Positions 3,791 through 9,500 of a stretch of DNA of 64,000 nt are shown here, one piece after another. The position numbers were made by a program, and so were the translations under genes. The stretch is from positions 1-64,000 of the forward strand of contig NIVC01001527.1 in assembly GCA_002269645.1 (NCBI GenBank), given 5' to 3'. Every line of letters starts with the position of its first letter. Position 1 is the stretch's first letter. Origin of the DNA: Macrostomum lignano (taxonomy: Eukaryota). The notes under the pieces are model-generated. The model worked only from the letters and a program-made list of their open reading frames with translations, did no database searches and was not told where the DNA came from.

Positions 3791-3796
3791 CAAGGA
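3791..3796. repeat. Left 6-bp target site duplication (CAAGGA)
   Basis: Identical CAAGGA at 26343-26348 immediately outside the other terminus. Confidence 0.95.
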
Positions 3797-4489
3797 AGTA
3801 GAAGGCATGAGGGGGCTTCTGGGACAAAATTTTTCACGTCCTCCATAATCCACCTAAATCCATCCATATTATCCCTGACAGAATCAGAAAAAAAAGGGGG
3901 GTCGCACTCGCTCACAAAACGTCCTCCATAATCCCATTAAATCCATCCATATTATCCCCGACAGAATCATAAAAAAAGGGAGGGGTCGCACTTGCTCCGA
4001 AAACTTCGAACATAATCGTATTAAATCCATCCATATTATCCCTGACAGAATCAGTGCATAACAGATGTCCACTAACACCTGTTATGTTCATTGACACCAA
4101 CATCCACCCATAGCATCTTCGAAACAATCGGAAAATAATCTGCATTCTTCTCCCCACATTCAATCCGAAGCGTTGAAACCAGATCCCTAAAACTTTAAAT
4201 CCCCTAACCCAGGGTCCTCACCCTTTGAAAAAAAATTAAATTTTCTCTAAAAATGTTTCCAGTTATCTCTCCAGGTTCTTATTACAAAGCGCACGAGCCT
4301 AATTACAAGAGCAAGTACCAATGCAAACTAGAATGCAGCGAATACATGAGAAAATATTGGCCCGACGTTGATATCAATGTCCCTAATATTAATCAAGCAC
4401 TTAAATCTCACTGGTTTGAAAAACACGGAGTAGTCATTAACAATTTTGACAGCTATTATAACTTTGCTGAAGTTATAAGGCAGTTATAG
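3797..4489 (+). repeat. Left terminal inverted repeat (~690 bp)
   Basis: Reverse complement of 25649-26342. The outer ~300 bp is near-identical (a handful of differences); the inner part is more diverged with indels. Confidence 0.93.
4253..4489 (+). CDS. Small TIR-encoded protein of unknown function (78 aa)
   Basis: Intact ORF preceded by AAAA-ATG; paralog at 25649-25885 is about 70-75% identical with conservative substitutions. Confidence 0.75.
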   Translation: MFPVISPGSYYKAHEPNYKSKYQCKLECSEYMRKYWPDVDINVPNINQALKSHWFEKHGVVINNFDSYYNFAEVIRQL

Positions 4490-4684: not shown

Positions 4685-4815
4685 AGCAGTTCCACTCAGC
4701 TGGCTAGAGGTGGAGCCGACCTCGTGTGGCTATGACTGACTGACGAGGGCAAAAAAGCCCAAAACCGGTCTCAGTCTGCCCCGCATGGTTCGATTCCCAC
4801 TGGTTACATGATTTT
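4685..4815 (+). ncRNA. Putative Pol III tRNA-like/VA-like RNA
   Basis: D-arm-like CTC-AGCTGGCTA-GAG (4695-4709), B-box GGTTCGATTCCC (4787-4798), TTTT at ~4812-4815, internal stems CCTCGT/ACGAGG and GGGC-A6-GCCC. The cloverleaf is imperfect. Confidence 0.3.
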
Positions 4816-4962
4816 CACGAACGTTCGTAAAAATCATGTGCAGCATAAAGCGGCTCTCAGTGGTTACATGATTTTTACGAACTTTCGTAAAAATCATGTG
4901 CAGCATATAGCGGCTCTCAGTGGTTACATGATTTTCACGAACGTTCGTAAAAATCATGTGCA
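4801..4962. repeat. 60-bp tandem repeat (~2.7 copies), each with a 34-bp palindrome
   Basis: Units start at 4801, 4861 and 4921; core ACATGATTTT(C/T)ACGAAC|(G/T)TTCGTAAAAATCATGT. Confidence 0.9.
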
Positions 4963-5200
4963 TAACAGGAATTCGCACGAATTCAACTGTGCAAAATAGC
5001 ATTTTTCTGAGAAAGACTAGTGCGCAGTTGGATTCGCGCCATTTCCTGTCTTAACAGGAATTCGCACGAATTCAACTGTGCAAAATAGCATTTTTCTGAG
5101 AAAGACTAGTGCGCAGTTGGATTCGCGCCATTTCCTGTCTTAACAGGAATTCGCACGAATTCAACTGTGCAAAAAAAGCTTTTTTTCTGAGAAAGACTAA
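4963..5200. repeat. 89-bp tandem repeat (~2.6 copies), each an imperfect inverted repeat
   Basis: Units start at 4963, 5052 and 5141; arms ACAGGAATTCGCACGAATTCAACTGTGCA / TGCGCAGTTGGATTCGCGCCATTTCCTGT. Confidence 0.9.
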
Positions 5201-5463
5201 TGACAGACTTGTGTTTTTTATGTGCGAATACTTGCGAAGTTAACCAACTTTTGGCATAATAAAACAATAGACTGAGCACAGACTATCTTTTTGTGTCCGA
5301 TTTCTTTTGTGTTTTCAATCCTTTCACTAAATACTGGTTAGAAAAAAATAATGCTTGGTCAGTCCAAAAAGCGTGAGGTTGCCTACTAATAAGTAATATG
5401 ACTAGAAAAAATATACTCAAAATTCAAAATAAAACTGAAATAAAATATTTAGTAATTTTAACA

Positions 5464-6326: not shown

Positions 6327-6347
6327 TTTTTTTACATAAAAAAATAT

Positions 6348-7634
6348 TTAAACTTTACTGGATGAATTGTTGATCATGTTAAGCTTCACCTTCCTCTCAA
6401 ATGCATAGATAATGTACAGGTCCACGGGTGTTGCGGCAGTCCTTTCAATGTTAGTCACGATATTCACAGGGCTGTTATCAGTAGGCATTTGTCTGGCAGA
6501 CACATCAGCGCCAAACATCGGATATAGAGTTCCATATTGAAGAGCAGTGATAGCAATTCCATTGTTCTCTTTCACAGCCAAGTCGACTAACTCGCTGTAA
6601 AATTTGCTAATCTTGTTCTGACTGAAATCTCCATTTTGTGGCAGTGCAGGGTAAAGATTATCACTGATTTCATGCTGAATGGACCGCACGTCTCCATGCA
6701 TGTAGCGTATAATGCTATTTGGGTTTCTCATATTAATAATGATATACCTTGGATTGCTGCATGATCCCTCTTTGATGCAGATGTTTGTTCTAGTTTCGTT
6801 TCGCTCATCTCGACACATGTAGGCCGTGTATGCAACATCAATGTCCTTCTCTATTGCCTTAAGATAGTCTGCTTTTAGTGCAGTCTTTGGCTCAATGACT
6901 TCCAAATACAGCTCGATTCCGGTTAGCTTCACAGCCATCCCAGTGTGGTCCGCCCCAGTCCACAACACTCTACTGCGATCATCTCTAGTCAGTCTAAATG
7001 TGTAGCTAAAGTTACTAGTCAGTCGATTAAATGTATTACAGAATCCACTCATGAATCTCAATGGTACAAATACATCAACAGACCGATACAGCGGGTTCTT
7101 AGCAGCATCATCAGCACCTTGCAATGCATAGTTGTATCTCTTCTTCCTCTTTTTATAGCCACTGTCATTGATGTCTCCTTCTTTTTCATCTGCGATAAAA
7201 CCCGCACCACTTCCCAATTGAATAAAATCAGGATTCTCGATCAAACAATGAGCGTCATAGACAATTCCAAAGTTGGCGATTCGCTCCAACTCAGTGCTCC
7301 CATTCGATACACTAAACTCCTTGAACATGTACGCCCAAAAGTTACTGATCAGAGCCACATCCGCATCATGCTTGTCAACGTTAGCACGAGCCGCATCCGC
7401 ACCACCCTTTGTCTTGAATTGAAATGTCATATGGAAGCCGCTCTTAAGACTGTGCACACTAACCAAAGACGAACATCCATTGTATGTAAATGTCAGTGTT
7501 TGACCAGGACCAAGATTAGTTTCATTCTGATTTTCCTGACTGGGAACTCTTACCTGAGTCGCTTTGATTGTGCTATTATCACTCAAAATAGGCTTGTTAA
7601 TCTTGTAGAAAACTGGTGTCAGTGGGTCGTTCAT
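6348..7634 (-). CDS. Major capsid protein (double jelly-roll, PY/hexon-like), 428 aa
   Basis: Intact ORF; VALISNFWAYMFKEFSV..ELERI, FVPLRFMSGFCNTFNRL..YTFRLTR, VKLTGIELYLEVIEP follow the Polinton MCP pattern; adjacent to the penton. Confidence 0.8.
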   Translation of the reverse strand: MNDPLTPVFYKINKPILSDNSTIKATQVRVPSQENQNETNLGPGQTLTFTYNGCSSLVSVHSLKSGFHMTFQFKTKGGADAARANVDKHDADVALISNFWAYMFKEFSVSNGSTELERIANFGIVYDAHCLIENPDFIQLGSGAGFIADEKEGDINDSGYKKRKKRYNYALQGADDAAKNPLYRSVDVFVPLRFMSGFCNTFNRLTSNFSYTFRLTRDDRSRVLWTGADHTGMAVKLTGIELYLEVIEPKTALKADYLKAIEKDIDVAYTAYMCRDERNETRTNICIKEGSCSNPRYIIINMRNPNSIIRYMHGDVRSIQHEISDNLYPALPQNGDFSQNKISKFYSELVDLAVKENNGIAITALQYGTLYPMFGADVSARQMPTDNSPVNIVTNIERTAATPVDLYIIYAFERKVKLNMINNSSSKV

Positions 7635-7664
7635 TTTTTAACTAAAAATAAAATAAAATAAGAA

Positions 7665-8882
7665 ATGAAGCGAAAAAGTACACAGCAGATATCTGAATTG
7701 GAGAAGCTGGCACAAGCAGAGAAACGAGTTACCGGGCTAATAAATAAGGAGCAACAATCCTACAATGAGTTTGTCCAAGCAGCCACAGAGTTTCATAAAC
7801 CCGGGTATGGAGAAGCTAAGAAAAATATTGATCAGGTCAAAGAAACTATCGACGACATACAGGAAACCCAAGTGCAAAAGGTTTTGGGCAAAATTCCAGA
7901 AGCACCACAGATACAGCCGCAACCACAGACACAACCGCAACCACAACAATCACAACAACAATCACAACCACAACAGCAACTAAAAGTGACAGATAATATT
8001 TTTGGACCAGTAGAGCGTGTCGAACATGATGGGAAATATGTATTTGGAATAAGTATGTGGAGAAAAAACATTTATAATGAACCAGTGGAATATTATATCG
8101 ACATAAATAAGGAAAATATTTCTGTTGTCAAAGGCTCAGAAACTATGAAAATTCCTTTCACAGACACCTTACTGACTTTTATGACCAAGAACCAAGAGAA
8201 AATCTCCGAGAAGCAGCTAAAGAACTACAGAAATCTAGTGACTTTTTCTCTTGTTAGAGATATAGAAATACTAAAGGTCCCAGAAGTTCTGAAACACATG
8301 TACGATAGCGGTGTCAACCTGACTAAATTCAAAAAGTACAAGCACTTTAAACAATGGTTCGATTTGCCAGATCAGGCGGAAGTCATAAAATATCTAGAAC
8401 AACAACAGCAACAACAACCACAACCACAGCAGCAGCAACATTTCACAGAAGTACTCAGGCAACTGGAAAATGCAGATCCGACTCAAGTAGCTAAATATAA
8501 AAATGATCACCCAGATGCCTGGCAACACTTAGAACAACACTCTCCAGATCGAATGAACAGAATCAAGCAAAGAGTTTTCACACCTCAACAAAGACAGGCA
8601 CCACATGACAGTTCCATCTCTGAAAGTGAGCAGTCTTTTGCATCACCTCCCCAGCAGCTACAAGCCCAACCAACTCCACAACCCCAAGACCAACCGCCCT
8701 CAACAGGAAAAGGAATTTCTGAAATCTACAAGCGAGTAGCGGTTCTTCTAGGAGCAGCAAAGACCGGAATGAAAGATGAAAATAGAAAAGAATTTGTCAA
8801 CATCCTGGACAAAATGATGGAAAAGAAGTATATTGACAAACGGGCGAGAGAGCTTCTGCTTTCGCGGTTCAACAAAAAATAA
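7665..8882 (+). CDS. PZ-like (adintovirus 'GasderminX'-type) protein, 405 aa
   Basis: N-terminal helix ending FHKP, central DNIFGP..FGI..QLKNYRNLV, C-terminal GKG-ISEIYKRVAVLLGAAKTG..EFVNILDKMMEKKYI, as in Polinton PZ proteins; Q/P-rich linkers. Confidence 0.65.
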   Translation: MKRKSTQQISELEKLAQAEKRVTGLINKEQQSYNEFVQAATEFHKPGYGEAKKNIDQVKETIDDIQETQVQKVLGKIPEAPQIQPQPQTQPQPQQSQQQSQPQQQLKVTDNIFGPVERVEHDGKYVFGISMWRKNIYNEPVEYYIDINKENISVVKGSETMKIPFTDTLLTFMTKNQEKISEKQLKNYRNLVTFSLVRDIEILKVPEVLKHMYDSGVNLTKFKKYKHFKQWFDLPDQAEVIKYLEQQQQQQPQPQQQQHFTEVLRQLENADPTQVAKYKNDHPDAWQHLEQHSPDRMNRIKQRVFTPQQRQAPHDSSISESEQSFASPPQQLQAQPTPQPQDQPPSTGKGISEIYKRVAVLLGAAKTGMKDENRKEFVNILDKMMEKKYIDKRARELLLSRFNKK

Positions 8883-8898
8883 TTTATTTCAAGTAAAA

Positions 8899-9315: not shown

Positions 9316-9462
9316 GTCCCGAAATGACACATCTAAGTCCCAAAATGACACATCTAAGTCCCGAAATGACACATCTAAGTCCCGAAATGACACAATTAAG
9401 TACCAAAATGACACATCTAAGTCCCAAAATGACACATCTAAGTCCCGAAATGACACATCTAA
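9316..9462. repeat. 21-bp tandem repeat (~7 copies) GTCCC(G/A)AAATGACACATCTAA
   Basis: Directly visible upstream of the ATPase; in frame with it (MTHLSP[K/E])n. Confidence 0.92.
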
Positions 9463-9500
9463 ATTATTTATTATTTAAATTTTTTTTTATCATAGAAAAA

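Follow-up and report, generated by a model that had tools for sequence, protein, structure and literature searches.

An A/T-rich start block ahead of 14 genes of a Macrostomum lignano Polinton, overlapped in two 30-bp head-to-head spacers, as a candidate compact promoter

Compact and overlapping promoters are already known from large DNA viruses, with a 2009 vaccinia study reportedly describing overlapped promoters between divergent genes, and promoters matched to those of a helper are known from virophages and PLVs of protists. In poxviruses, the late promoter is described as a core, 5-7 bp and TAAAT, the intermediate promoter has TAAA with A/T 15-19 bases upstream (PMC5294985, PMC11980589), and two overlapped promoters lie between divergent genes (PMC3185747). 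TCTA in mavirus and the EMALEs and AAAATTGA in Gezel-14T are promoters copied from the giant-virus helper (PMC8547959, 10.1101/2022.07.28.501842), ASFV has motifs 4-12 bp from the start and median 5' UTRs of 9 and 14 nt (PMC7163114), and the yeast pGKL linear plasmids use a TAAAN initiator (PMC6211774). Maverick-Polinton-related PLVs have been recovered from entomopoxvirus occlusion bodies and are proposed to be parasites of a large DNA virus, in a paper whose main text contains no promoter analysis by word search (PMC11296320), as is the case for three more of the papers covered. The literature covered on animal Polintons (including PMC5173321, PMC11071296, 10.64898/2026.10.13.758929, 10.1101/2025.10.09.676808 and 10.64898/2026.06.19.733378), with most subscription papers outside its scope, held no paper on promoter anatomy and none showing a virion cycle. 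At stake are the mode of transcription of animal Polintons and the question whether they act autonomously or depend on a helper virus.

The window, the whole stretch of DNA that was analysed, comprises 64,000 nucleotides of a Macrostomum lignano contig (NIVC01001527.1) and contains a Polinton of 22.5 kb, into which a DNA transposon has been inserted.

3797-26342, no strand: Polinton/Maverick, adintovirus-type, with terminal inverted repeats (TIR) and a 6-bp target-site duplication (3791-3796, 26343-26348)
6348-7634, minus strand: major capsid protein (MCP), 428 aa, open, Pfam DJR-like
7665-8882, plus strand: gene PZ (label from the sequence-only reading), 405 aa, open, no family match
24696-24985, minus strand: integrase, 5' part; the 3' part is at 16904-17610, split off by the nested transposon
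25016-25543, plus strand: phospholipase A2-domain gene (PLA2), 175 aa, PF08398, E 7e-14
17611-24695, plus strand: nested DNA transposon, 7.1 kb, host-machinery control, GT..AG spliced and spliced-leader trans-spliced at 21305

The long terminal inverted repeats with the 6-bp duplication, the double jelly-roll (DJR) MCP together with a packaging ATPase, and a protein-primed polymerase are the characters that place the element among the Polintoviricetes. The Pfam DJR-like match of the MCP is below the cut-off (E 1.5e-4), a sequence search of the PDB gave no match, and comparison with DJR-positive relatives gave E 2e-16 to 4e-9; the A32-type ATPase has a Pfam match over the cut-off. A search with the DNA polymerase B of the protein-primed type (pPolB) returned 7550 matches among 8000 candidates, one of them named adintovirus PolB. 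The pPolB gene is spread over several frames here, as is the protease-like gene, and the penton-like gene lies in two; the protease-like gene is provisionally labelled, from adenovirus-type cysteine protease motifs recognised by eye in three frames. A pX-like gene of 152 aa was also found. Among the labels that the sequence-only reading had given to the divergent genes, those of MCP and PLA2 stand, and that of integrase probably does, through a weak similarity to rve-positive relatives (pairwise E 8e-6 and 1e-3), with no match in a Pfam scan of either part; PZ gained no support from Pfam or Atlas. Scans for close relatives with MCP or pPolB gave no match, and Rfam gave 0 matches.

Two copies of a 78-aa gene lie just inside both terminal repeats, at 4253-4489 (+) and 25649-25885 (-), and are identical at 190/243 aligned bases; leads to RNase T2 are weak (Pfam E 0.0027; Atlas 0.90, low recognition) and the predicted fold is unreliable (pLDDT 55). 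Between the left of these genes and the penton end, non-coding DNA at 4780-5190 carries direct repeats roughly 60 and 86 bp long, seen by eye, which are a possible enhancer or origin.

The two divergent gene pairs had been described as separated by exactly 30 bp of almost pure A/T, and this description is correct: 28/30 bases in spacer 1 and 29/30 in spacer 2 are A/T, CAT and ATG stand at the ends, and the ORF map contains no further head-to-head junction within the Polinton.

7635-7664, no strand: spacer 1, MCP (-) start block overlapped with PZ (+) start block; three AAAAT repeats
24986-25015, no strand: spacer 2, integrase (-) start block overlapped with PLA2 (+) start block; near-central AAATTT palindrome at positions 14-19

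The A/T richness of the spacers and its position exceed chance. Within the Polinton all stretches with 28/30 A/T (8/8) are at gene starts, whereas elsewhere in the window such stretches are not rare, the nested transposon having 6 and the host flanks 10. That the two spacers are homologous in sequence was considered and rejected, as they are identical at 17/30 positions for 14.7 expected (p 0.23), their middles at 9/18 for 10.8 expected, and the likeness is no greater than composition predicts; AAAATAAAATA is common to both. The equal lengths are suggestive only, since 30 = 30 would arise in about 1 in 25 cases if gaps were drawn from 16-40 bp and more commonly under a tighter size constraint. 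The contig X11 record 12, from an RNA-like run, bridges spacer 2 (24696-25186) without a gap, at 32 differences; the length of spacer 2 is therefore kept in one copy. We infer that the length of spacer 1 is also kept within the species from colinear contig offsets in X11 (114 at 7602, 221 at 7709) around a place flagged as a skipped repeat; 7636-7675 was skipped as repeat in contig mapping, and contig breaks there are uninformative.

The spacers are not special, and represent an instance of an element-wide start signal that is shared with related elements. In addition to the four divergent genes, the following ten genes carry the block:

4223-4252, plus strand: start block, left TIR-linked 78-aa gene, ATG 4253
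6327-6356, minus strand: start block, penton-like gene, ATG 6326, 21 bp after the MCP stop
8869-8898, plus strand: start block, 129-aa gene, ATG 8899, 16 bp after the PZ stop
9471-9500, plus strand: start block, packaging ATPase, ATG 9501, start chosen downstream of a 21-bp repeat array
10288-10317, plus strand: start block, 272-aa gene, ATG 10318, 16 bp after the ATPase stop
11199-11228, plus strand: start block, 249-aa gene, ATG 11229
12377-12406, minus strand: start block, protease-like gene, ATG 12376
16305-16334, minus strand: start block, protein-primed DNA polymerase B, ATG 16304
16888-16917, minus strand: start block, 152-aa pX-like gene, ATG 16887, 16 bp after the integrase stop
25886-25915, minus strand: start block, right TIR-linked 78-aa gene, ATG 25885

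The array at 9320-9460, which lies between the 129-aa gene and the start block of the ATPase, holds some seven repeats of 21 bp; every one has an in-frame ATG, and the ATPase ORF thereby becomes 59 codons longer upstream.

Each block comprises a near-pure A/T core (-24 to -13), a tolerant gap (-12 to -6) and an A-run adjoining the ATG. With zone limits set by eye, G+C over the 14 starts amounts to 60/140 bases at -40 to -31, 15/84 at -30 to -25, 3/168 at -24 to -13 and 19/98 at -12 to -6, and A occupies 65/70 positions at -5 to -1. The A-run is 4-7 long and sometimes interrupted by G, and TAAA occurs in the last 9 bases of 8/12 starts. A rule that demands 20 or more A/T among the final 25 bases and 4 or more A among the final 5, fixed after the data had been seen, holds for 14/14 gene starts, two of which (ATPase and protease) were hand-picked, and for 1/557 other ATGs. 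An independent test was provided by weight matrices built from the loci of other elements: when 571 ATGs are scored with the matrix made from 45 starts called mechanically in L003, L006 and L010, the 14 starts take ranks 1-15, whereas the matrix from 49 starts of insect-type loci scatters them over ranks 10-356. The term insect-type is based on the grouping of L008 and L019 with ant-named proteins in a pPolB tree and on a 100/100 ATPase clade. Similarly, AAAT is found in the core at 11/14 starts here and 33/45 in L003, L006 and L010, compared with 4/49 in the insect-type loci.

The anatomy of the block is also visible in how copies differ. The two TIR-linked paralogues keep the core and A4-ATG while the ten bases between differ, and among the 40 of 564 substitutions and 12 of 62 indels listed for other same-species copies, the penton start differs at -7, -8 and -10 and has two bases inserted there. 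Of the three G/C bases that the spacers contain, two fall where one gene's core coincides with the other gene's tolerant gap, and the third is within the A-run of PZ. Tandem stop-to-ATG gaps measure 16, 16, 16, 21, 92, 124 and 212 bp; in each of the four short ones the block stands behind a TAA stop that is located in the core. Non-coding DNA more than 30 bp from starts has 0.39-0.52 GC in seven stretches, the exception being a 64-bp sub-stretch beside the penton stop with 0.16 GC. A start-block-like stretch precedes a 12-codon ORF at 5351 (+) within 5321-5463; for this region, with the 84% A/T 64 bp beside the penton stop, we propose a gene that was lost, a very small peptide or a terminator.

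In related Polintons, the head-to-head gaps vary, although they separate other gene pairs. The PLA2-ATPase gap, with starts fixed by homology, is 34 bp in L003, 39 bp in L010 and 44 bp in L006, and the gap of another pair in L042 is 40 bp. Across 69 pPolB-bearing loci, 0/49 mechanically called head-to-head gaps are exactly 30 bp and neither MCP/PZ nor integrase/PLA2 occurs as a head-to-head pair. A fixed 30-bp rule for the family is therefore rejected, as far as other gene pairs can tell; 30 bp is the short end of a compact class, and the exact length is of little importance. The loci closest in MCP, ATPase and PLA2 carry the block at 16/16, 11/15 and 8/14 starts under a looser rule. By contrast, the insect-type loci lack the A/T block: the ATPase/PLA2 junction spans 316-328 bp in four of them (L008, L011, L021 and L025), which, as a positive control, have a TATA at Pol II distance, namely at -40, -43, -34 and -46 of the ATPase ATG, respectively (4/4), and the gap in L019 is 77 bp.

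An ATPase tree of 16 rows (L013 omitted as a duplicate of L012) unites the window element, L042, L003, L006, L010 and the insect-type loci in one 95/89 group, and the pPolB tree, made by a quick method, leaves the window element unplaced. Since A/T-raised starts are seen in many other loci too, the compact state may be the older one, on a tree rooted at the midpoint only. When short A/T spacers of back-to-back type were sought by pattern, at least 122 stretches emerged; 3 of the 80 examined have ORFs of at least 70 aa on both sides, two of them spacers of 27 bp in giant-virus bins, too few to serve as evidence.

Other observations were made on the related loci. In L003 (about 3145, -), L010 (about 8045, -) and L042 (about 7606, +) the integrase frame overlaps the PLA2 end, with a conserved A6C heptamer after the PLA2 'GLG' motif; L003 and L042 lack a separate ATG for the integrase N-terminus, and L003 has a stop in that frame. 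A programmed -1 frameshift giving a PLA2-integrase fusion is possible in these three loci, while in the window element the two genes are instead head to head. The pPolB relative L016 is on a contig named within a giant-virus bin, and 44 Polinton-type polymerase loci (L026-L069) in bacterial or archaeal genome bins are probably eukaryotic or viral contamination.

The sequences themselves give the block with its zones, its presence in related elements and the absence of TATA and acceptor motifs; promoter function, start sites, short leaders, a reading polymerase and a helper are inferred. The explanation that we tentatively prefer, as the leading candidate but at somewhat short of even confidence, is that of start-proximal promoters with near-leaderless mRNAs, read by an RNA polymerase that a large DNA virus supplies on co-infection. 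Each Polinton gene would have its own promoter inside the 25-30 bp ahead of its ATG, made of the A/T core, the short tolerant gap and a T-A-run start site adjoining the ATG, and the 5' leaders of the mRNAs would contain only a few templated bases. A head-to-head pair could fit into one block length because each A-run is the far T-run of the other gene and the cores overlap, and 30 bp would be near the minimum without being a fixed number. The Pol II TATA-to-start spacing is about 30 bp, so that a start set by a core at -24 to -13 would fall inside the ORF; the core is too near the ATG for a TATA box and at the distance seen in poxviruses, ASFV and yeast linear plasmids, which makes a large-DNA-virus polymerase the most likely reader. 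The Polinton would then act like a virophage in an animal, borrowing the polymerase of its helper. The motifs of known helpers are not matched here, as strict TAAATG, the poxvirus initiator, is found at 0/14 starts, TCTA at 2/14 and AAAATTGA at 0/14. The sequence-only reading had proposed a compact two-way promoter with near-leaderless mRNAs, and this is indirectly supported: the same block stands before 14/14 genes, is recognised by the matrix of relatives and lacks Pol II TATA geometry. What falls away is a dedicated 30-bp bidirectional element, in favour of an element-wide promoter unit used twice. Its other proposal, of promoters placed within the opposite ORF, keeps some probability, as a contig of an RNA-like run extends across the integrase/PLA2 spacer.

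An A/T block with an A-run is low in information, and several machines could read it. The same compact promoters and near-leaderless mRNAs might instead be served by host nuclear Pol II without TATA, the block melting or excluding nucleosomes and the A-run acting as the initiator, perhaps aided by an unassigned protein of the element; we consider this possible but rather unlikely. The whole anatomy of the block is compatible with it, the element is integrated in the nuclear genome and has contig cover in the RNA-like runs, five ORFs without any family could supply a factor for Pol II, and in some protists A/T-rich Pol II promoters that work in two directions give very short leaders. It must, however, dispense with the TATA spacing discussed above, as TATAWAW is absent within 100 bp of all 14 starts (0/14), and the insect-type clade displays what a Pol II Polinton promoter looks like, from which the block differs. 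Furthermore, no RNA polymerase, TBP or TFIIB family was matched in a Pfam scan of 18 proteins, and the starts of the nested transposon and of a host cytochrome P450 (58648-60332, -, in two long open stretches) are without the block.

To a lesser degree, the block could be a signal at the RNA level, namely an A-rich translation context, an unstructured U-rich leader and a possible T-run terminator, with the promoters further upstream inside neighbouring ORFs or the terminal repeats, which appears improbable. An A-run ahead of the ATG is a common start context in invertebrates, but such a context needs no core with 98% A/T at -24 to -13 plus a tolerant gap. Contigs are present in all 30 bins in the three RNA-like runs, and all four runs consist of contigs, which show neither strand nor single transcripts and may include DNA. 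The contig across spacer 2 favours an RNA-level signal and would be unexpected from strictly leaderless transcripts; carried-over DNA or read-through would also give such a contig. Runs of at least 6 T are missing from sense coding DNA (0 for 4.4 expected, p 0.012, one among many motifs tried) yet fill several spacers, a weak hint of T-run termination, although they are also under-represented in the controls and occur within about 140 bp after only 6/14 element stops. AATAAA is non-discriminating: coding DNA here contains 8 for 9.9 expected (0.85 of expected, with 0.91 in TATA-type controls and thus no separation), and near stops it is found at 0/12 here, 10/47 in insect-type and 15/44 in compact loci.

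It is very unlikely that the blocks are acceptors for spliced-leader trans-splicing, by which long transcripts would be divided into mRNAs of one gene each, as happens in host operons. The host does trans-splice, since two runs have a loose end at 21305 that agrees with the Macrostomum spliced leader as published, and GT..AG joints are present inside the nested transposon in three runs presumed to be RNA; a T tract with TAG at -8 to -11 is found at four starts (MCP, ATPase, 249 aa and pPolB), so that some genes might be trans-spliced. The host acceptor is YTNCAG (PMC8629364). This motif is present at the leader-bearing transposon start but at 0/14 Polinton starts, YAG is not enriched (4/14 compared with 188/557), and AG is missing from the final 15 bases of 7/14 starts. 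Among the 24 of 328 loose ends listed, none shows the leader at a Polinton start, and the 15 of 33 joints listed include no GT..AG joint inside the Polinton. In the multi-exon gene of the nested transposon (ATG 21313) the terminal AUG of the leader would be immediately followed by UGA.

That short non-coding gaps simply drifted to A/T and became equal by accident is barely credible and is rejected for the block by the 39-52% GC of non-coding DNA away from starts and the ranks from the cross-element matrix, although the spacers are no more alike than composition predicts and chance, which would give equal lengths in a few percent of cases or more, may account for the exact equality.

If the preferred explanation of start-proximal promoters read by a helper polymerase is extended to related elements, animal Maverick-Polintons might be of two kinds, a TATA type represented by the insect-type loci and a compact type with 25-30 bp promoters in large-DNA-virus style, represented by the element described here and its closest relatives, the latter type a helper-polymerase-activated, virophage-like element in the animal germ line; we regard this as a speculative and rather doubtful proposal. 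A promoter signature that splits helper-type from Pol II-type elements makes the question of a helper testable and, if the idea of two kinds is true, promoter anatomy could sort thousands of Polintons by lifestyle and indicate their helpers.

Among the known systems, the insect-type Maverick/adintovirus loci L008, L011, L021 and L025 share the gene kit, a head-to-head pair and the same supported ATPase clade, and differ in the long spacer, the TATA and the lack of an A/T block already described. The entomopoxvirus-associated PLVs come from occlusion bodies, whereas the Polinton here is seen only as an integrated copy. Like ASFV and pGKL, the Polinton has an A/T element some 4-12 bp upstream of the predicted start and probably very short A/T-rich 5' UTRs, but those systems encode their own polymerase and the Polinton shows no TGA-type upstream motif. 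Virophages and PLVs are likewise integrating and polymerase-less, with one A/T-rich signal per gene and single-gene units; their motifs are scarce or absent here, and their hosts are protists, in contrast to an animal with no known helper. The likeness to poxvirus intermediate and late promoters, which is one of composition only, lies in an A/T core, a short spacer and a TAAA-type start at the ATG, and in head-to-head genes placed on one short non-coding stretch whose two strands are T-rich and A-rich, respectively; the Polinton differs in lacking strict TAAATG, in an A-run sometimes broken by G and in having no polymerase. Taken together, and by analogy, the layout is closer to the promoters of large DNA viruses than to those of animals, and the Polinton may borrow a helper polymerase.
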